Assembly: GCA_947258495.1 (NCBI GenBank)
Contig: CAMYIN010000097.1
Coordinates: forward strand, 11,229 to 75,228
DNA: 64,000 nucleotides
DNA from: an uncultured Gammaproteobacteria bacterium
GTDB lineage: Bacteria > Pseudomonadota > Gammaproteobacteria > Arenicellales > JAANXG01
Direction of reading: 5' to 3'
Part shown: in pieces, positions 4,512 through 58,970 of the stretch
Layout of the letters: every line of letters starts with the position of its first letter
Numbering within the stretch: the stretch's first letter is position 1
Translations under genes and position numbers: made by a program
Notes under the pieces: generated by a model
Seen by the model: the letters and a program-made list of their open reading frames with translations, nothing else
Databases searched by the model: none
What the model was told of the DNA's origin: nothing

Positions 4512-5492
4512 TCAATCTGTGACATTCCCGTAATGCAGCGCGCCAATCAGGCCGGGGTCCCTTTCGGTTATGGCGTCGCGGATGGCGGCGAGCGGCGCGC
4601 CGTCGTCGAAGCGAACAGCGTCCCGGGTCACCACCACCCCGAGTTGATTCCAGAGGCGGGCGAGATCCACCGATTCGGCGGCGGCGCCCATGCGTTCGTA
4701 GAGGCGCGTCAGCGACGACGTCCCGGTTGCCTCATCCGCCATCGCAAGCAAAGGCGACAGCGAGTCCAATCGGTCGGTCATGTCCAGGCCCGCGGCAACG
4801 ATTCCGCGCAGGGCGTGGCGCAGCGTCTTTCTGTTGGCGGTGGTCTTGCGCGTATCGATATCGGCGAGCAGGCAGAACAAGGCGCCGCCCCAATAGGTGC
4901 GGCCCCAGGTGGGTGTGAAATCCAGACCGCGGTCGCCGTCCTCAGGCAGGCCGTGGGGCATGCCCTGCACGAATCCGCGCCACACCTGCTCGGGTGACAG
5001 GTCGCCCGCGTTGGCGCGGGCGACGGACTCGACGTATACAGCCAATCCCTCCTCCAGCCAGTGATGTCTGCGCGGCAGCGAGGGCAGGGCCAGGTGGATC
5101 ATTTCGTGGACCAGCACCCAGTCCCGCTCCAGGTCGGCCGCTCCGGTCTCAGTCCCCAGAGTGATGTTGATCGTGGGTCCGTAGACCAAGGCTCCGCCGT
5201 GCTTCACCCCTCTCCCGGAAGCGGCGCGCATGGCGATATACGCTTGCTCGGTGGGGAAGCGGCCGTAATAACCGCCCACCACTTCGGCGGAACGCCGTAC
5301 CCAATCGAGGAGCGTGTCTTCGGACAGGCGGAAACCGGCATCGTCGACGACCACGTGCAGTCGGCTTTGTGCCACCTCGATGGTGACGGCCTGGCGGGCG
5401 TTCGCCGCGTGGGACGACGCGGCCGGGACCCAAACGAGGGCGATAAGGAACAGACGAATAGCGTCGCCGGGGCTGTTTCTGCAGTGCGTCAC
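4512..5492 (-). CDS. secreted gluzincin-like metallopeptidase (HExxH...EG)
   Basis: HEMIH followed by WLEEGLAVY and YWGGAL; signal peptide ending SHA; start estimated at GTG 5492. Confidence 0.7.
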   Translation of the reverse strand: MTHCRNSPGDAIRLFLIALVWVPAASSHAANARQAVTIEVAQSRLHVVVDDAGFRLSEDTLLDWVRRSAEVVGGYYGRFPTEQAYIAMRAASGRGVKHGGALVYGPTINITLGTETGAADLERDWVLVHEMIHLALPSLPRRHHWLEEGLAVYVESVARANAGDLSPEQVWRGFVQGMPHGLPEDGDRGLDFTPTWGRTYWGGALFCLLADIDTRKTTANRKTLRHALRGIVAAGLDMTDRLDSLSPLLAMADEATGTSSLTRLYERMGAAAESVDLARLWNQLGVVVTRDAVRFDDGAPLAAIRDAITERDPGLIGALHYGNVTD

Positions 5493-5523
5493 TGTTGTTG
5501 CGACAAAGGATTGACGCCCGAGT

Positions 5524-7152
5524 TCAAATGCCCGCCGCGGAGCGGGATGCCGCGTCGCCCCTCGCCGCCAGTCTCTCGACCAGCTGCAGAAACTCCTGGA
5601 AATCGTCGACCACGATGTCGGACCTGTGCGGGTAGCGCACCGTGCCGGGAAAGATCTTGGCCAGCCACGCTTTGTCCCATTTGGCGCCGTTGTAAAACAC
5701 GCTGGTGATTCCCGCGTTCTTCGCCGCCACGGTGTCGGTCGTGCTGTCCCCCACATACCAGCACGCGGCCCCTGCTTCGACTCCGAGGTTGTTGAGCGCC
5801 CTGAAGATGGGGTCGGGTTCCGGCTTTCTCCGCTCGGTATCGTCCCCCGCGACGATGGTGTCAAAAAGGTCGACCCAGGTTCCGTGTTCCACTACCCGCA
5901 GTTCGCTCTCCAGAAACTCTCGATCCCGGTTGCTGAGGACGCCCGTCCTGATTCCGAGTTCCCTGAAGCGACGAAGCATGGCGGGAATGCCGCGCTCAAG
6001 CGGTTCCACCGCGCCGAAATAACGGCGATAGCACCGGTTGAAGGCTTCGTGGGCGATCTGTTTCGCCTCGAGGTCGTCGCCGAACAGGATCTCGAATATG
6101 TCGGTTCGGGAGATCTTTCGTGCGGCTTTGATCTTCGGGTGCAGTTTGTAGTTGTCGCGGACGTATTCGACCAGTTTTCGGTCGTCCTCGTTTTTGCTTT
6201 GCTCGGGATCAATAAGGCGTTCAACGAGACCGAGCGATTCGAGTCCCACCAACATGTCGTCAACGGCGTGGTACATGGCGTCGAGGGTGTCGACAAGGGT
6301 GGCGTGCCAATCGAACAGCACCACCGACGGTGCGACCAATTTGGCAATTTCGCGCTCTCTCTGCTTGTTCCAGCACTGCTGCACCAGGGTCAGGAGCTGC
6401 TGGAAGTCGTCCACCACGTAGTCTGGAAAATGTGGATGGTGCAGCGTATCGGGAAATATTCTGGCGATCCAATCCAGCTCCCATTTCGCCCCGTTGTAAA
6501 AAATACTCGTGATTCCGGCGGACTTTGCCGACACGGTGTCCGTGGTGCTGTCGCCGACATACCAGATCTCCGCATGAGGGCGCAGGTCGGCGAGCTCCAG
6601 CGCTTTGTACACCGGTTCCGGCGACGGTTTCAGCTGCGCGGTATCGTCCCCGGCGACGATAACGTCGAACAGGTCCTTCCACCCACCCGGCTCGATTTCT
6701 TCCAGCTCCTGGAGCAGAAACTCGCGCGCTCGATTGGTCAGAACGCCGACTTTGATTCCCAACGCCTTCATTTGCTCGATAATCCGGCGGATTCCGGACT
6801 CAAAGGGCGTCACGTCGCTGTAGTGATTCCGGTAATGACGATTGAAGGCTTCGTGGGCGATCCGTTTGGCCTCTTCGTCTCGACCGAACAACACCTCGAG
6901 AAGGTCCGTGCGCGAAACCTTCTTTTCCGCCTTGAGCTTCGGGTGTAGCGCACGATGCTCACGGATGTAGGCGACCAGTCGGCGATCGTCCTCCGTTCTG
7001 CTTTGGTCCGGGGGAGTAAGCCGGTCGGTGAGGTCGAGGCGGTCGAGTTGTCGCAGCGTGTCTTCCATGGCGGCGTACATGGCCTCCATGGTGTCCGCGA
7101 GCGTGGCGTGCCAGTCGAACAGGACCAGAACCGGACGTGTTAAGCCGTACAT
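5524..7152 (-). CDS. tandem-duplicated HAD-family hydrolase
   Basis: two copies of LFDWHATL, (T/S)NR, KPxP, YVGDSTTD; start ATG 7152. Confidence 0.88.
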   Translation of the reverse strand: MYGLTRPVLVLFDWHATLADTMEAMYAAMEDTLRQLDRLDLTDRLTPPDQSRTEDDRRLVAYIREHRALHPKLKAEKKVSRTDLLEVLFGRDEEAKRIAHEAFNRHYRNHYSDVTPFESGIRRIIEQMKALGIKVGVLTNRAREFLLQELEEIEPGGWKDLFDVIVAGDDTAQLKPSPEPVYKALELADLRPHAEIWYVGDSTTDTVSAKSAGITSIFYNGAKWELDWIARIFPDTLHHPHFPDYVVDDFQQLLTLVQQCWNKQREREIAKLVAPSVVLFDWHATLVDTLDAMYHAVDDMLVGLESLGLVERLIDPEQSKNEDDRKLVEYVRDNYKLHPKIKAARKISRTDIFEILFGDDLEAKQIAHEAFNRCYRRYFGAVEPLERGIPAMLRRFRELGIRTGVLSNRDREFLESELRVVEHGTWVDLFDTIVAGDDTERRKPEPDPIFRALNNLGVEAGAACWYVGDSTTDTVAAKNAGITSVFYNGAKWDKAWLAKIFPGTVRYPHRSDIVVDDFQEFLQLVERLAARGDAASRSAAGI

Positions 7153-7546
7153 GACCTCGGCACCAGGTCGATGGCACGATGCGAAACGTGGGTCCTCGCG
7201 CACACCGTGCGGTTGCCTGCCGTACGCAGAGTCTCAATACCCATGGATCTACCTCGGTAGCGGTTGACGGCGACGGCCGGGCACGCGGTGCCGGCCTCGA
7301 CCGGCCCGATGCGGTAGTCGGAGTGGTCGTCGGAATTTTCGCAAGAAGATACACAAAATCGGTGATGGTGAACAATCCGTGTTCCGCAGCGCGAAATCGC
7401 TTGCGTAGGCGCACTGTCTGGCCGACAATTTCAGGAGTCGGAATGTGCAGCCGACGCAGGCAGTGGTCATGAGAGAGCACGAGCAGTCCGCATCGGCCTC
7501 GACCACAGGAACGTTCCAGGGTCCTCCTTGCACCGAGGGTCGCGTT

Positions 7547-8029: not shown

Positions 8030-9441
8030 TCGCGCATCAGCTCCGGGCCCCCTTCGTTCTTGCCCGTCGCCAGCCGTTTTTTCACATCGCGCAAGGCCGC
8101 CTGCAGCCCCTCTTCGATCGATGGGTGATAGAAGGGCATCTGCAGCAGGTTCGCTACTGTCTGTCGTTGTTGAATCGCCCACGCCAACAGATGGGCGAGA
8201 TGTTCACCGCCGGGCGCTATCATGCAGGCGCCCCGTAACCGCCCGTCCTGGCGGTCCGCGTAGAGGCGCAGTATTCCCTGGTTCCTGCCCATGATCAGCG
8301 CCCGCCCCAGGGCGTTGAAGCGGAATTCACCGACCGCCGTGGATTCCTCGTTCAGATCGCGGAACGACACGCCGGTGCTGGCGATGTTTGGATCCGTAAA
8401 AGTGATGGTCAACGGCGTGCGGCGTCGATAACGGACGATCGGGTCCGCCATCGCGTTGCCGCCCGCGGCGCGCCCTTCGTCGGAGGCTTCGTGCAGAATT
8501 TGACGATCGGCGTCGGCGTCTCCGGCAATAAAGATGGGGAATCCGTCGATCTGCATGGTCGCGGGATCGTAAACGGGCGTGCCCCGTGTATCGAGGGTCA
8601 CACCGATGCGTTCCAGTCCCAGGCCCTGCAGGTTCGGACGTCTCCCCATACAGGCCAGGACCTTGTCGACGTGCACACGGCGGTCTCCGCTGGCAACCCG
8701 CAGACGGTCGCCGTCCTCCCGCACCTCGGCCGCCTCGCCGAGCCACAGGCGGAACTCCTTCTGCAACAGCGTCACCGCGAGCTGGTTGACTACGGGGTCG
8801 TGGATGGCGCCAACGTACTGCAACGCGTCGAGCCCCGTCACCGCGACCCCCATGCGGCTCAACGCCTGGCCCAATTCGAGCCCGATCACGCCGAGCCCCA
8901 CCACGGCGACGGAAGCGGGCAGGGTCTCCTGCTCGAAGAAGTTATCGCTGGTCAGGACCCGGTGCCGGAAGGGCCGCCAGTCTTCCGGCACCACGGGGCT
9001 CGAGCCCGTGGCGATGACGACCTTGTCCGCACGGATGCGCTGCCCTGCCGCTTCGAGCACGTTCGGCTCGACGAAACGCGCATGGGCGCCGATGAATTCG
9101 TCGCCCAGGTTGTCGGTAGTGCCGGCGAGTACGCGGTCCACGAAGATATCGCGCAGGTCGCGAACGTGCTCCATGGCCGCCGCGTGGTCCAGACGCAGCG
9201 CGTCGGCGCCCTCTATGCCGAGCCGTCGAAAAATACGTCGACGCTGGAAATCGCCGGCCGCCTGGATGAACGCCTTGGAAGGCATGCAGCCGACCCGAGC
9301 ACAGGTCGTCCCCAGCTCGCCGCCGTCTAGCAACACGAAGTCGGCGGTAACACGTCGAACCTGCGACAGCGCCGCCAGACCCGCGGTGCCGGCGCCGATG
9401 ATGGCCACCTCGACGTGGCGGCTGACGCGGCCGTTGCTCAA
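8026..9441 (-). CDS. dihydrolipoyl dehydrogenase-like flavoprotein disulfide reductase
   Basis: IIGAGTAG, GTTCARVGCMPSK, GLGVIGLE, FYHPSIEE. Confidence 0.9.
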   Translation of the reverse strand: MSNGRVSRHVEVAIIGAGTAGLAALSQVRRVTADFVLLDGGELGTTCARVGCMPSKAFIQAAGDFQRRRIFRRLGIEGADALRLDHAAAMEHVRDLRDIFVDRVLAGTTDNLGDEFIGAHARFVEPNVLEAAGQRIRADKVVIATGSSPVVPEDWRPFRHRVLTSDNFFEQETLPASVAVVGLGVIGLELGQALSRMGVAVTGLDALQYVGAIHDPVVNQLAVTLLQKEFRLWLGEAAEVREDGDRLRVASGDRRVHVDKVLACMGRRPNLQGLGLERIGVTLDTRGTPVYDPATMQIDGFPIFIAGDADADRQILHEASDEGRAAGGNAMADPIVRYRRRTPLTITFTDPNIASTGVSFRDLNEESTAVGEFRFNALGRALIMGRNQGILRLYADRQDGRLRGACMIAPGGEHLAHLLAWAIQQRQTVANLLQMPFYHPSIEEGLQAALRDVKKRLATGKNEGGPELMRD

Positions 9442-9477
9442 GGTGCCGAAATCTCCGATGCAAACACCACTGTCTCG

Positions 9478-10566
9478 CTAAGCGACGTGTTTTTTTGCCA
9501 GGTAGTCGTGGGACTGCATCTCCACGAGCCGGCTGGCGGTGCGGGCGAACTCGTGCTGCATCCTCGCACCGTGATAGAGGTCGTCCGGCTCCGCCTCAGC
9601 CGACGCAATGAATTTGACATTGTGGTCGTACATGATGTCGATCAGGTTCACCAGACGGCGCGCCTTGTCTTCCGAATCCGCATCCAATCGCGGGATGTTG
9701 GACACGAGTACCGTGTGAAAACACCGAGCGATTTCCAGGTAGTCGTTCTGTGACCGCGGGCCGCCGCACAATTCCATGAAATCGAACCATACCACGCCGG
9801 TGGCATGACGCACGGTCCTGATGTTTCGTCCTTCAATCTCCAGCGTTATCCCGGCACGGCCGGGCTCCGACGCCAGATGTGTGAAGTTGTGGCGGAGTCC
9901 GTCCTCCGAGGTACGGTCGATTGGACAGAAGTAGGTGTTCGCACGGTCCAGAAACTGCAAGCGGTAATCGGCACCGCCGTCCAACTCGATTACCATCGTG
10001 TGCGCTTTGATTAGGTCGATGGCGGGCTGGAAACGGTCCCTCTGCAGACCGTTTTTATACAGCTCGTCTGGATGAATGTTCGAAGTAGCCACCAGCACGA
10101 CGCGCCGCGCCAGGAGGTGCTTGAGTAAGCCCCCAAGAATCATGGCGTCACCGATATCGTTGACGATGAATTCGTCGAAACACAGCACTCTGCTCGACTC
10201 GGCGAAGTTTTCACCGATTATCGAGAGCGGGTCGGGTCGATCGCGAAGCGATTTCAACTGTTCATGGGACTTTTTCATGAAACGGTGAAAATGCGTCCGC
10301 TTCTTTTCTTTGAACGGTAGACAATCGAAAAACAAATCCATGAGATAGGTCTTCCCGCGGCCTACGCCTCCCCACAAGTACGCACCTCGAGTTGGTTCCG
10401 AGGGCGATTTGCGATTGAACCAGGAAAGCAGGCCTGTGGATTCCGAGCGGCTCGCGATCAGGTCGTCGTACAATCGCTGCAGCTGGGCGATCGTCTTTTC
10501 CTGCGACGCGTCGCGTTTGAAATGGTTCTTTACCAGGTCGGCGTAATATCGATCAAGCAGGTTCAC
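9478..10566 (-). CDS. zapE: cell division ATPase ZapE (AFG1 family)
   Basis: GAYLWGGVGRGKTYLMDLFF, HFHRFM, LCFDEF, TSN, LYKNGLQR, RTASRL. Confidence 0.93.
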   Translation of the reverse strand: MNLLDRYYADLVKNHFKRDASQEKTIAQLQRLYDDLIASRSESTGLLSWFNRKSPSEPTRGAYLWGGVGRGKTYLMDLFFDCLPFKEKKRTHFHRFMKKSHEQLKSLRDRPDPLSIIGENFAESSRVLCFDEFIVNDIGDAMILGGLLKHLLARRVVLVATSNIHPDELYKNGLQRDRFQPAIDLIKAHTMVIELDGGADYRLQFLDRANTYFCPIDRTSEDGLRHNFTHLASEPGRAGITLEIEGRNIRTVRHATGVVWFDFMELCGGPRSQNDYLEIARCFHTVLVSNIPRLDADSEDKARRLVNLIDIMYDHNVKFIASAEAEPDDLYHGARMQHEFARTASRLVEMQSHDYLAKKHVA

Positions 10567-55655: not shown

Positions 55656-56540
55656 ATGACCCGGGTGTTTATCGTCGGTTGCGGCTATGTGGGAACACGA
55701 CTCGCGCAGGAGTGGCTGAGGCGCGGCGCCGCGGTCGCCGCGCTCGCGCGCAGCGACACCGCTGCCGCGCGCTTGCAGCGACTCGGCATTTCACCCGTCG
55801 CCGGCGACCTGGGGGACGTCTGGAGCCTGCGACGCCTGGCGCTGCGGGACAGCCTGCTGTACTACCTGGCGCCGCCACCGCCTTCCGGTGTTGCCGACAC
55901 CTGGATGCGCTGCTTTGTGTCCGCACTCAGGACATCGCGTCTGCCCGGACGATGCGTGTTACTCGGCACCACCGGGGTATACGGCGATCACCGCGGCGGA
56001 TGGATAGACGAGAACGCGGAGCTGCGGCCGGGTTCCGACCGTTCGCGGAGACGTTTGGATGCGGAGCGGGTCCTGAGGGCGTGGGGCCGGGTGTGGCGGG
56101 TCCCCGTCGTGGTGCTGCGGGTGGCGGGTATATACGGACCCGAAAGGCTGCCGTTGCAGCGCCTGCGGGCCGGCGCTCCGCTTGTGCGTGAGCAGGAGTG
56201 CCCGTTCACGAACCGGATACACGTGGACGATCTGGTCGCAGCCTGCGTCGCCGCAGGAGAGCGCGGTCGCGCCGACAACGTATACAATGTCAGCGACGGT
56301 GATCCATGCACTATGACCGCCTATTTCAACTCCGTGGCGGACGCGGTTGGATTACCGCGACCGCCGCAGGTGCCAATGCGGCAGGCCCGGCAGCACATGA
56401 CGCCGGCCATGCTCGCCTACCTCGCCGAATCCCGGCGCCTGTGCAACCACAAGCTGGTACAGGAGCTCGGTCTCGAACTGCGTTATCCAACGCTGGCGGA
56501 GGGTCTCGGCGCGATCTGTGAACACAAAAAAAAAGGGTAG
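55656..56540 (+). CDS. NAD-dependent epimerase/dehydratase (atypical SDR)
   Basis: IVGCGYVG, TTGVYGD, LRVAGIYGP, NRIHVDD, YNVSD. Confidence 0.88.
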   Translation: MTRVFIVGCGYVGTRLAQEWLRRGAAVAALARSDTAAARLQRLGISPVAGDLGDVWSLRRLALRDSLLYYLAPPPPSGVADTWMRCFVSALRTSRLPGRCVLLGTTGVYGDHRGGWIDENAELRPGSDRSRRRLDAERVLRAWGRVWRVPVVVLRVAGIYGPERLPLQRLRAGAPLVREQECPFTNRIHVDDLVAACVAAGERGRADNVYNVSDGDPCTMTAYFNSVADAVGLPRPPQVPMRQARQHMTPAMLAYLAESRRLCNHKLVQELGLELRYPTLAEGLGAICEHKKKG

Positions 56541-56559
56541 GCGCGTGGCCTACCCTTTT
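56526..56559. terminator. bidirectional intrinsic terminator
   Basis: A9-GGGTAGGC-gcgtg-GCCTACCC-TTTT between convergent genes. Confidence 0.85.
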
Positions 56560-56582
56560 CTAGCAACCGCTGCGTGTGCGTG

Positions 56583-57254
56583 TTACTTGCTGGCTTCCGT
56601 CGGCTGGGTCTGAGTCACGTTGCCCCAAGTCGCGGGATCGAACCAGTTGAAGCCGCCGGCAGAGGAGACGTCGACGCCCGGAATGCTGTACGCCGCGGGA
56701 TTCATCCACTGCATGTACGTCATCGGGTTCATGAACGCGGCGTAGTTCGCAGGGTTCATGCCCTGGAAGTACTGTGTCGGCTCCATCACGTGCGCATAGG
56801 CGCCCGGATTCATCCAGTACAGGTAGTTCGCCGGGTTAAGAAAGGCGGAGTACGAAGCGGGATTCATCCACGCCAGCCAGTTATTGGGGTTCATAAACTG
56901 CATGTAGAACTGCGGCGTCATGAACTGCGCGTAGGTCGCCGGATTGGTGAAAGCGCGGTGCGCGGAGGCGTGGGTCGCGGGATCAAAAAAGATCGCCCAA
57001 CCGGCCGGATGGGCTGGATTGAACTGCATGGGGGTCGTCGTCGCAGCGCCGGTGCTCCATGTGGAGGGATCAAACCAGTTGACGGCTCCGCCCGCGGCTT
57101 GATCGCCGTACAGGTTGGTCCAGCTGCTGGGGTCAAAGGGATTGGGTACGGCGGTCGGCTGCTGCTGCGTCTGGCTGGCCTCTTCGGCGGCGTGCACCGG
57201 GCTGAGGGTACTGAGCAACGCGAACAAGGCCGCGGCAAGTGTGGACTTAAACAT
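56583..57254 (-). CDS. secreted protein with ten 9-residue [FW]MNPxxYxx repeats
   Basis: GGAGGA RBS, Sec signal ending VHA, regular repeats, strong terminator downstream. Confidence 0.88.
   Translation of the reverse strand: MFKSTLAAALFALLSTLSPVHAAEEASQTQQQPTAVPNPFDPSSWTNLYGDQAAGGAVNWFDPSTWSTGAATTTPMQFNPAHPAGWAIFFDPATHASAHRAFTNPATYAQFMTPQFYMQFMNPNNWLAWMNPASYSAFLNPANYLYWMNPGAYAHVMEPTQYFQGMNPANYAAFMNPMTYMQWMNPAAYSIPGVDVSSAGGFNWFDPATWGNVTQTQPTEASK
56682..56951 (-). repeat. 10 x 27-bp degenerate coding tandem repeat
   Basis: FTNPATYAQ FMTPQFYMQ FMNPNNWLA WMNPASYSA FLNPANYLY WMNPGAYAH VMEPTQYFQ GMNPANYAA FMNPMTYMQ WMNPAAYSI. Confidence 0.9.
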
Positions 57255-57308
57255 GTTACATATCCTCCGATTTTAGTAAATGAGCCCTAGAGAAGTTGAA
57301 AATATTAA

Positions 57309-57330
57309 TATATAAGGAATGTCTAATATA
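57309..57330. promoter_or_regulatory. AT-rich palindromic operator
   Basis: TATATAAG-gaatgt-CTAATATA (7/8 arm symmetry) in a strongly AT-rich divergent intergenic region. Confidence 0.6.
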
Positions 57331-57458
57331 ACAGGATTAAAAACCAAAACCACCCTTTACTCAAGGACAATGGAGATAACGACTTGCTCCAATGGGGAGA
57401 TGCAACTTAGACTTGTTATATCACTTTTGGGATAGATGACCGCGAAGAGGGCCGAAAC

Positions 57459-57947
57459 TTGGACAAAAAAATCTGGTGGGGCGCAATCACACTGGCGTCG
57501 CTGGTCACCGCGACATTGGGCTGGAACCTGGTCGGCAACGAGCACAGTTCCGCATCCCTCGATCCATCGTCCGCTGCCGCCACGGCTGCGGTGAAGACCC
57601 AGGCGGCGCCGGCGCCGGCCGACGCGCAGACGCCGGTCGCGGAAATCGACGAACTGGCCACGCCGGCCCGAGACTTGCGCGCGCCCGCCGCCTCCCTGTC
57701 GCAACGCGCGGGCTCCCAGGCGGCTTCGGCGCTGGCACAGCGCCAGCGCGCCGCGTTGCAGCTGCGCAAGGCCGATGTCGCCGCAGCCGGGCCCGTGGGT
57801 GTGGGGCCTGCGGAGGCGTGCTTCAACCAGATGAAGACCGTCTTCTGTCCCATTATCGCCCAAATGCCCTTCGTTCGTGATGTCGCCGGGCAGGTGGCGC
57901 TGTGGGGGCGATTCGACTGTCCGGTCGGCGTGACGCCGAAGATCTAG
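57459..57947 (+). CDS. membrane-anchored hypothetical protein with Ala-rich linker and 3-Cys C-terminal domain
   Basis: TTG start after GAGGGG; N-terminal TM; low-complexity linker; ACFNQ..FCP...RFDCP. Confidence 0.6.
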   Translation: MDKKIWWGAITLASLVTATLGWNLVGNEHSSASLDPSSAAATAAVKTQAAPAPADAQTPVAEIDELATPARDLRAPAASLSQRAGSQAASALAQRQRAALQLRKADVAAAGPVGVGPAEACFNQMKTVFCPIIAQMPFVRDVAGQVALWGRFDCPVGVTPKI

Positions 57948-58017: not shown

Positions 58018-58563
58018 TCAATCCGTCGCCCCGACGTCGGCTTCCTCCACCAGACTGCGAATACGGTCGAGGACCTCCGGACTGTCCCACTCCAGCGCGC
58101 CGTGCATGATATAGGTCACGCGGCCCCGGCGGTCCAGCAGGAAGGAGGCCGGCAGGCCCTTGAGCGGCCAGAAGCGCGCAGCGTCCATGTGCTCGTCCAG
58201 CAATACGGTGAAGGTGGGTGACGGTGACATGGCCAACATGAACTTGCTGATGGCGTGGGGATTTTCGTTCACCGCGATTGCGAGGACGATGAAATCTTCG
58301 CCTTGGAGCTTTTGCCAGGCGCGTTGCAGCGACGGCATCTCCGCGCGACAGGGCGGACACCAGGTCGCCCAGAAATTGATCAATACCACCTTGCCTTTGA
58401 ATTCCTTGAGCCGGTACGGTTTACCACCGAGATCACGCAACGTGAAGCCCGGCGCATCTGGGCGTGCTTCCAGCTGTTTCAACGAGGACGATGCGTTCGT
58501 AGGTACCAGAACGCACAACAGTCCCACGATGAACAGTCCGAATAGTCCGATGTTTCGAATCAT
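58018..58563 (-). CDS. TlpA-family disulfide reductase
   Basis: N-terminal TM, APGFTL, GKVVLINFWATWCPPCRAEMP, GLPASFLLD. Confidence 0.92.
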   Translation of the reverse strand: MIRNIGLFGLFIVGLLCVLVPTNASSSLKQLEARPDAPGFTLRDLGGKPYRLKEFKGKVVLINFWATWCPPCRAEMPSLQRAWQKLQGEDFIVLAIAVNENPHAISKFMLAMSPSPTFTVLLDEHMDAARFWPLKGLPASFLLDRRGRVTYIMHGALEWDSPEVLDRIRSLVEEADVGATD

Positions 58564-58970
58564 GGTTCCTAATTCGTCGCAGCGCGTTGATACACCCCCG
58601 GCTCGCGACTGCGGGCAACATCCCATATCTGCGTTAGATAATCAAAGGGTAGCGCATTTATCTTCACCACGACAGCGACGGCATTGGCGCACAAGGGTAT
58701 TGCCGCAGACGCCGGATCGCCATTTTGCCGCAGTTGAATGCACATCGGTGCGGCATGCCGCGGTTGTTAAACAAGTTTTACATCAGTGAGTCTGTGTTCA
58801 CCTACGTAAACCGCGGAATCTCGCGGCCGGTGTCCGCGGCCATGGTGCAATGTGCAGCGGGCGGTTTTATGATAGGACCGTTACCCGTGAAGACGGTCAT
58901 GGCGTCCTGGGTCGCGCTCTAGAAAGCATGTTTGTGAATATCCGCCGCGCTGCCGGCGGGAGGAGTTCGA

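Follow-up and report, generated by a model that had tools for sequence, protein, structure and literature searches.

A putatively exported nonamer-repeat protein family of Arenicellales with a possible accessory role in soxCD-less sulfur oxidation

The 64,000-nucleotide stretch of contig CAMYIN010000097.1 analyzed here (the window, to which unlabeled coordinates refer) comes from the genome of an uncultured Arenicellales gammaproteobacterium and carries a gene for a putatively exported repeat protein (P0001, the target; 56583..57254, minus strand, stop codon included), whose family appears to be linked to sulfur oxidation. The gene starts with ATG and encodes 223 residues. Read by eye, its N-terminus (MFKSTLAAALFALLSTLSPVHA, then A) begins with a basic n-region, continues into a hydrophobic core, and ends in a V-H-A cleavage motif. 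We take it for a Sec-type signal peptide (residues 1-23; 57186..57254, minus strand; cleavage probably after V-H-A at residues 20-22), as the first-pass annotation had proposed. The same type of N-terminus is common to the 30 homologs shown out of 60 aligned, and we infer that the target is exported by this route. The target has a mass of ~22 kDa; the mature protein would have a grand average of hydropathy (GRAVY) of -0.44, and it is poor in charge (6% Asp/Glu/Lys/Arg) and rich in aromatic residues (17.5%).

The core of the target is an array of ten nonamers in series with no indels (residues 102-191; 56682..56951, minus strand): FTNPATYAQ, FMTPQFYMQ, FMNPNNWLA, WMNPASYSA, and FLNPANYLY, followed by WMNPGAYAH, VMEPTQYFQ, GMNPANYAA, FMNPMTYMQ, and WMNPAAYSI. 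The consensus is [F/W]-M-N-P-A-T-Y-M-Q, and self-identity of the array reaches 0.22, 0.20, and 0.21 at lags 9, 18, and 27 versus 0.01-0.12 at all other lags from 1 to 30. A single charged residue (E158) and a single His occur in the array. No tandem repeat was found in the gene at the DNA level, and the nine-residue period has therefore been kept by selection on the protein. Two motifs precede the array, FDPSSW (residues 40-45; 57120..57137) and FDPSTW (residues 61-66; 57057..57074), modeled as helices 42-50 and 63-70, and FDPATW (residues 205-210; 56625..56642), modeled as helix 207-214, caps its C-terminal end. Just upstream of the array, a pair of degenerate repeats forms a His-containing segment, FNPAHPAGW...FDPATHASAH (residues 78-99; 56958..57023, minus strand like the three cap motifs), in which N79, P83, and P92 are nearly invariant in the family alignment and the His positions are kept in part of the family only. 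The repeat count, the lone charge, the flanking motifs, and the His segment were all as first described from the sequence.

The gene also appears to have its own expression signals, as had been claimed: a Shine-Dalgarno sequence, GGAGGA (57263..57268, minus strand), lies 8 nt upstream of the ATG and is conserved in orthologous loci, and an intrinsic-terminator-like hairpin with a 14-bp stem and a T-run (56529..56561, minus strand) lies 21 nt past the stop codon and is shared with a convergent epimerase gene. Upstream, a 204-bp divergent intergenic region (GC content 0.41 versus about 0.6-0.7 around it) contains an AT-rich block of ~60 bp (57296..57355, minus strand) with long invariant runs, including TATATTAG ... 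TATATATTAATAT, in 8/8 orthologous loci, a conservation above that of much of the coding sequence. No match to the sigma-70 consensus was found in this block, which is probably the promoter or operator of the divergent gene pair; its conservation and base composition suggest a strong or regulated promoter. Six DNA sequencing runs (shares 0.05-0.12) and no RNA runs matched the target locus.

The divergent gene (57459..57947, plus strand) encodes a 162-residue protein in which an Ala/Pro linker joins a membrane anchor at the N-terminus to a conserved C-terminal three-Cys domain; no Pfam or NCBIfam family was found for it. Its gene is next to a family gene at 12 of the 50 loci compared and, as a partner, is conserved in the target's clade. 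Next to it lies a gene for an exported TlpA/ResA-like thioredoxin with a WCPPC motif (58018..58626, minus strand; Pfam AhpC-TSA at 4.4e-24 and Redoxin at 1.9e-22; NCBIfam ResA/TlpA matches below cut-off), of which the three-Cys protein could be a substrate. This thioredoxin falls in one BLAST cluster with the thioredoxin inside the sox/fcc clusters of loci L018-L020. The other genes around the target are mostly housekeeping genes (epimerase, Na+/H+ exchanger, aldehyde dehydrogenase, and NUDIX).

The first-pass annotation had recognized no named family, and database searches bear this out. A Pfam scan of the target (E<=10) returned only JmjN at 11.7 bits (cut-off 26) and Amnionless at 9.8 bits, NCBIfam returned no families, and a Pfam scan of five other members gave no family over cut-off. 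The best match of a PDB sequence search, to peptide-binding proteins over 44 residues at an E-value of 0.02, was judged to be chance, and ESM Atlas returned two clusters only, both "hypothetical protein" (0.86 and 0.76). A word-index search found 230 homologs at E<=1e-3 among 589 candidates, all of them named "hypothetical protein" among the 120 matches listed, and an exhaustive HMMER scan of 1.84 billion representatives of 50% identity clusters found 150 at E<=1e-3, 111 at E<=1e-10, and 40 at E<=1e-30. Eight long "homologs" of 516-1928 residues were dropped as spurious: four had no Pfam family (P0215, P0216, P0225, and P0235), P0245 had sub-threshold matches only, and the remaining three (P0157, P0226, and P0247) matched unrelated eukaryote-type domains (TALPID3, MSP, and a ligand-gated channel); P0216, P0225, and P0235 are unrelated low-complexity repeats. 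With these removed, no fused forms occurred among the 150 representatives. The family is thus real, conserved, and unnamed, and consists of stand-alone proteins of ~200 residues. Our literature searches, in which a motif is not searchable as text, turned up no description of it. In some of the family matches (genomes G182, G179, G185, G066, G070, G234, and G080), the reading frame is interrupted by one or two stop codons (TAG, TAA, or TGA); these may be pseudogenes or matches running past gene ends.

Across 60 diverse members, the nonamer consensus, in percent, is [F37 W27 M13]-[M63]-[N64 D14]-[P90]-[A42]-[T27 A20 N18]-[Y79 W12]-[M37 A20]-[Q37 A15], and charged residues make up 4.7% of the array. 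The array lacks indels in 50 of the 60 homologs, and the ten repeats are therefore a fixed feature rather than a drifting low-complexity tract. In a maximum-likelihood tree of 50 family proteins, 10 rows form a separate Met-super-rich clade (support 100/100), whose members have 15-26% Met and are nearly always paired with a gene for a DUF302 protein. The target sits in an 18-row clade (100/99) inside a 40-row canonical clade, other branches of which adjoin soxYZ/fccAB or soxAB. A short, sox-embedded subtype contains 4.2% Met, its Met position being taken by Leu/Ile/Val, and is free of His; His is likewise absent from the members at L020, L079, L083, and L087. Cys is absent from all 11 well-delimited members tabulated; the one tabulated entry with Cys, at L085, is an over-extended open reading frame (ORF) call with its start far upstream of the signal peptide.

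An AlphaFold2 model built on the 60-member alignment (mean predicted local distance difference test score, pLDDT, 79.4; predicted template modeling score 0.63) reaches pLDDT 85-95 over residues 80-190 and renders each nonamer as a single 7-8-residue helix beginning at the Pro; the FDPxxW motifs are helical as well. On a helical wheel, the conserved Phe/Trp, Tyr, and two Met positions lie on one arc and Ala, Thr, and Gln lie opposite, and 9 of the 10 helices have their hydrophobic moments directed to one side. Since Met shares the hydrophobic arc with Phe/Trp and Tyr, it is more likely a stacking-face residue than a free ligand, and the Met residues are probably part of a hydrophobic stacking face or core. 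Foldseek found no PDB matches at E<=1e-3 (best 2.7), and the best match of an exhaustive structural aligner (VIA-align wide) over 48,161 chains had Z 2.0 at a root-mean-square deviation of 34 Å. The fold is possibly new, though an absent match is no proof of novelty, and a confidently modeled one-helix repeat of nine residues with no solved analog is of structural interest apart from any function. The first-pass proposal of a solenoid or self-assembling protein thus gains a helical, solenoid-like repeat in the model; for self-assembly, a three-copy complex prediction of residues 72-216 (score 0.00, mark 0.42) gave no answer and weighs neither for nor against binding.

Organisms that combine Sox lacking soxCD with reverse Dsr are expected to pass through zero-valent sulfur, and the host is of this type by gene content: its 3.18-Mb, 74% complete assembly encodes SoxB (835 bits), SoxZ, and DsrB (545 bits), and SoxC was not found in it. 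The expectation is restated in a preprint that refers to Arenicellales and sulfur globules, the available part of which does not mention the repeat protein (10.64898/2026.04.01.715867). Two more family members occur in the host genome, one on C178 that is 55% identical to the target and is followed by a Met/Pro-rich Spy/CpxP-like gene, and a Met-super-rich relative (18.8% Met) on C28. In genus relatives G063-G068, G070, and G079, a second DsrB-like gene (442-462 bits) occurs besides the main one (~545 bits), in one case (G065:C3:215684-216682) 22 kb from the target's ortholog; it was not found in the 74% complete host assembly.

The distribution of the family follows that of reverse Dsr in one direction, which answers the first-pass suggestion of a phyletic profile against sox and Dsr genes. 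Among 243 Arenicellales genomes, DsrB occurs in 116 (over cut-off), SoxB in 135 (E<=1e-120), SoxC in 19, and the repeat family (E<=1e-5) in 41, representing 13 of 43 genera with 1-5 matches per genome. By hand cross-tabulation, all 41 family-positive genomes encode DsrB and none of the 127 DsrB-negative genomes carries the family. SoxB is present in 37 of the 41 (the exceptions, G063, G056, G226, and G232, are 59, 95, 88, and 68% complete), and 36 of them lack SoxC, which is found in the other 5. Within taxonomic family f1, genus g5 lacks both DsrB (0/5) and the repeat family (0/5), which provides a single independent contrast. When 400 genomes were sampled evenly across the class, the repeat family turned up in 7 further genomes, which belong to 4 taxonomic families; DsrB is present in 5 of these 7 versus 118 of 400 overall, and SoxZ is present in all 5 family-positive genomes tested, including both without DsrB. 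These data support confinement of the repeat family to Sox/reverse-Dsr-bearing genomes, with G269 and G481 lacking DsrB and retaining SoxZ. As a separate observation that cuts against the association, 35 of 36 genomes of taxonomic family f8 encode SoxB with no DsrB, SoxC, or repeat family by these searches; sulfane sulfur may take a different route in this lineage.

Neighborhoods were compared over 50 loci (27 unbiased related loci, 3 host-genome stretches, and 20 genome-search regions), with ORFs called by a greedy script, clustered by BLASTP, and named by Pfam and NCBIfam matches of cluster representatives. The recurrent neighbors are a TlpA-like redoxin (16 loci of 50), an exported 242-residue DUF302 protein (15), SoxZ (11), a SoxA/TsdA-type cytochrome (8), the flavocytochrome-c sulfide dehydrogenase FccB (8), a 345-residue thioredoxin-like protein (8), TusA (7), a DsrE2-like protein (7), SoxY (6), and SoxB (6; 854 bits), together with an ArsR/BigR-like regulator and a TsuA/YeeE-like transporter. 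Sox, FccB, or TusA/DsrE2 lies within 10 kb of 18 of the 51 non-identical family genes, and DUF302 lies within two genes of 14. Distances to soxB, taken from the coordinates of the 243-genome search, are free of the selection that affected loci L068-L087 (see below): the family gene is 0.8-1.3 kb from soxB in eight genomes (G224, G234, G236, G239, G229, G211, G058, and G059). By rough estimate, chance would place a random gene of a 3-5 Mb genome with one to three sox loci in a 20-kb interval around them in ~1% of cases. Gene order is soxY-Z-A-B-thioredoxin-FAMILY-DUF302 in taxonomic family f14, soxZ-A-thioredoxin-FAMILY-CxxCH protein-DUF302 in f3, and soxYZAB, ArsR/BigR-like regulator, FAMILY, DUF302, TsuA-like in f5, and sox-adjacent family genes also occur at L018-L022 and L073. 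In the class sample, the family gene lies 3 kb from soxZ in G437 and 12 kb in G545.

Several partner genes deserve description in their own right. The commonest direct neighbor, the 242-residue DUF302 protein (L087:10435-11163, L020:11752-12477, and 13 further loci), carries its DUF302 domain at the C-terminus and is rich in Met in its N-terminal part, and in three other genomes (L026/L084, L072/L073) family genes are followed by a gene for a stand-alone 127-residue protein that resembles DUF302 by eye and has no NCBIfam match. An earlier study noted DUF302 genes, their function unexplained, within sox clusters of bacteria that lack soxCD (PMC5037610), and the titles and abstract openings of the DUF302 papers listed assign no function. 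An exported 175-residue protein (L020:9041-9568, plus strand; cluster also at L018, L019, L022, L073, and L076; no Pfam family) has one CxxCH haem-binding motif amid family-like MDPxxW/MNPxxx motifs, and its gene, in sox clusters, separates the family gene from DUF302 or cytochrome genes. In five genomes, the gene directly downstream of a family gene encodes a Spy/CpxP-like protein (Pfam Metal_resist, LTXXQ) whose N-terminal tail is rich in Met, Pro, and His (L029:2220-2864, on host C178; L016:8143-8778; L012:8782-9369); this protein may be a dedicated chaperone or metal-binding partner. On host C28 (L033: 5956-6438, plus strand; 6770-7540, minus strand; 8624-10054, plus strand), the Met-super-rich relative stands back to back with a second repeat family of ~250 residues with MDPxxY/MNPxxY motifs, ~1-2 kb from a Tat-signal multicopper oxidase and adjoining a hemerythrin-like ORF (5173-5559). 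Finally, a conserved block beside the sox-FAMILY-DUF302 cluster of three Arenicellales families (L068-L070, L073, and L074; ~5-9 kb from the sox cluster) holds a Cas6-family match (PF09559, 9.2e-56), a TauD-family dioxygenase, and unnamed genes.

We know of no resolved account of how sulfane sulfur leaves SoxYZ and stays as zero-valent sulfur in soxCD-less oxidizers. Our tentative reading, possible though somewhat short of probable, is that the family comprises extracytoplasmic accessory or structural proteins of soxCD-less sulfur oxidation that would bind or coat zero-valent sulfur once exported. A link to sulfur is supported because the family is confined to Sox/reverse-Dsr genomes and has paralogs inside sox operons. 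The gene content of the host, the DUF302 genes noted in other soxCD-less sox clusters, the clustering of the target's thioredoxin neighbor with that of the sox/fcc loci, and the charge-poor array of fixed repeat number with its aligned hydrophobic moments also count in favor of the reading. The core of the presumably exported, Cys-free, and almost uncharged protein would be a rod or spring of constant length made of ten one-helix nonamers, each with a 7-8-residue helix that Asn-Pro would cap and that has a hydrophobic face of Phe/Trp, Met, and Tyr and an uncharged polar face of Ala/Thr/Gln/Asn. In hosts with soxCD-less Sox and reverse Dsr, such proteins would serve the extracytoplasmic branch of sulfur oxidation, their repeat surface binding or coating hydrophobic zero-valent sulfur (S8 or polysulfane), either as a functional analog of sulfur-globule envelope proteins or as a holder of zero-valent sulfur between SoxYZ/Fcc and cytoplasmic Dsr. 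The first-pass suggestion of a new sulfur-globule coat has thus gained a link to sulfur through genome distribution and sox-operon paralogs; the identity as a coat is something we only infer. It seems doubtful, if worth stating, that the family represents a new kind of zero-valent-sulfur-binding protein, a one-helix-per-nonamer solenoid whose aromatic/Met groove or Ala/Thr/Asn face binds S8 or polysulfane and which, with its DUF302 partner, forms a route or envelope from SoxYZ to stored sulfur in marine soxCD-less oxidizers with no recognized carrier. Either way, the family is a concrete candidate in Arenicellales and a few other gammaproteobacterial lineages known mostly from metagenomes, and it is tied to the DUF302 gene found in truncated sox clusters, which is no less unexplained.

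Several observations weigh against a sulfur-binding accessory role. The target and its 7 closest orthologs lie outside sox clusters, and 27 of the 51 family genes, these included, have no Sox, Fcc, TusA/DsrE2, or DUF302 gene in the DNA examined; moreover, loci L068-L087 were chosen partly for sharing a contig with dsrB, which biases the neighbor counts over the 51 genes. The sox-embedded members fall in other tree clades than the target, and their function may therefore have diverged from that of the target. The repeat family is absent from 75 of the 116 DsrB-positive Arenicellales and from 113 of the 118 DsrB-positive genomes of the class sample, and so the sulfur pathway does not need the repeat protein. 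Conversely, G269 and G481, both 92-93% complete, carry the family and lack DsrB. Finally, the count of 41/41 overstates the association because related genomes are not independent.

Alternatively, though we regard this as unlikely, the family could act as a protein-binding scaffold or adaptor that organizes or stabilizes exported sulfur-oxidation and respiratory proteins (SoxYZ, cytochromes c, the DUF302 protein, and Nap) and does not itself bind sulfur. Of the 51 family genes, 15 have a cytochrome c gene and 5 a Nap gene within 10 kb, the DUF302 pairing is frequent (14/51), and the Spy/CpxP-like protein is encoded within two genes of 6/51. In addition, two neighbor families, a ~240-residue MDP-repeat protein and the 175-residue CxxCH protein, share an [M/F]-[D/N]-P-x-x-[Y/W] motif with the repeat family, which suggests a common interaction module. 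However, no partner is constant across the family, and an uncharged Ala/Thr/Gln surface would be unusual for a specific protein interface.

The Met content raises another option, that of an exported Met (and His)-rich protein that binds Cu(I)/Ag(I) or buffers metals. In the repeat cells of the 60 homologs, position 2 is Met in 63% and position 8 is Met in 37%, the Met content of the Met-super-rich subtype reaches 15-26%, the target carries its His-containing segment, and the Met-rich paralog on host C28 lies ~2 kb from a multicopper oxidase. The Spy-like partner, with its Met/His/Pro-rich N-terminus, matches Metal_resist over cut-off at L016 (1.9e-08, 34.9 bits), the host's own copy scoring 27.2 bits, below cut-off. 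Yet where position 2 is not Met, it is otherwise Phe/Ala/Ile/Leu, the soxB-adjacent short subtype manages with 4.2% Met and, like the four His-free members named above, no His, and no Met/His ligand motif is conserved across the family. Met also shares a helical face with Phe/Trp/Tyr and is probably in the core, and Cys is missing from the well-delimited members. Over the 50 loci, the multicopper oxidase neighbor occurs in one only and no cop/cus-type cluster recurs, and confinement to Sox/Dsr genomes is not what one would expect of a general metal buffer. The first-pass alternative of a Met-rich metal or oxidant sink is thereby weakened, and we consider metal binding improbable, although the Met-super-rich clade and the Met/His-rich Spy-like partner still speak for it to some extent.

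Still less probable is a lineage-specific structural protein of the envelope or surface that has no connection with sulfur, its Sox/Dsr link reflecting only shared ancestry and ecology. Such a role would fit the mostly housekeeping neighborhood of the target and the patchiness of the family even among DsrB-positive genomes; it would not readily fit the insertion of family genes in sox operons in at least three Arenicellales families (f14, f5, and f3), the proximity to soxZ in the L018-L022 group and in G437 and G545 of other class-sample families, or the joint absence of DsrB and the repeat family from genus g5 within f1. Barely credible is a sacrificial methionine oxidant sink recycled via the TlpA-like thioredoxin and methionine sulfoxide reductase: the protein is Met-rich and predicted to be exported, 26 of the 51 family genes have a TlpA-like or other thioredoxin-like gene no more than 10 kb away, and the TlpA-like protein weakly (far sub-threshold) matches the thioredoxin part of an MsrA/MsrB fusion model, but no msr gene recurs among the neighbors in the 50 loci, Met is dispensable in one subtype, and the fixed repeat number with highly conserved Pro, Tyr, and Asn points to a defined fold rather than a disposable Met carrier.

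Known systems offer partial parallels. Alpha-solenoid repeats such as TPR, HEAT, PPR, and Sel1 span 34-40 residues with two helices each. Like these, and like beta-solenoid binders such as insect antifreeze proteins, the nonamers are predicted to stack into an elongated regular surface, and the periodic face of small, uncharged Ala/Thr/Asn in the target may be likened to that of beta-solenoid surface binders; unlike alpha-solenoids, the modeled repeat has nine residues and one helix. Met-rich periplasmic Cu(I)/Ag(I) proteins include CusF, CopC, PcoE/SilE, and the Met-rich inserts of CueO and PcoA. The repeat family resembles them in being (by prediction) exported, Cys-free, Met-rich, and sometimes His-bearing, with one paralog near a multicopper oxidase, and differs in its rigid nonamer with invariant Pro/Tyr in place of MxxM/MxxH motifs, in the replacement of Met by Leu/Ile/Val in one subtype, and in its Sox/Dsr-restricted distribution; Pfam, PDB sequence, and fold searches gave no sequence or fold match between them and the target. 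With the DUF302 proteins described for soxCD-less sox clusters (PMC5037610), the family shares the status of an unexplained accessory gene of a truncated cluster and is adjacent to them in 14/51 cases, although the sequences are unrelated and DUF302, unlike the repeat family, is in Pfam (PF03625).

The closest functional comparison is with the sulfur-globule proteins SgpA-D of Allochromatium vinosum, described as Sec-exported, "extremely hydrophobic," and encoded by 1-6 sgp genes per genome, with SgpA-C being 11-13 kDa and sgpD adjoining exporter and regulator genes (PMC10386293). By these descriptions rather than by sequence, the target differs in size (~22 kDa versus 11-13 kDa for SgpA-C) and in its GRAVY of -0.44, which is not extreme hydrophobicity and is a further point against a sulfur-coating role, and several of its paralogs are embedded in sox operons rather than beside exporter and regulator genes. 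On the other side, Sec export, described for the Sgp proteins, is predicted from sequence for the target, both occur in sulfur oxidizers that rely on reverse Dsr, both vary in paralog number (1-6 sgp genes versus 1-5 family matches per genome), and a structural, non-enzymatic role is proposed for both. Beside these Sgp-like traits, the target has its own putative promoter region, ribosome-binding site, and terminator, and by gene content the hosts of its family would be expected to form a zero-valent sulfur intermediate, as do those that build sulfur globules, with DsrB in 41/41 family-positive Arenicellales and no SoxC in 36/41.

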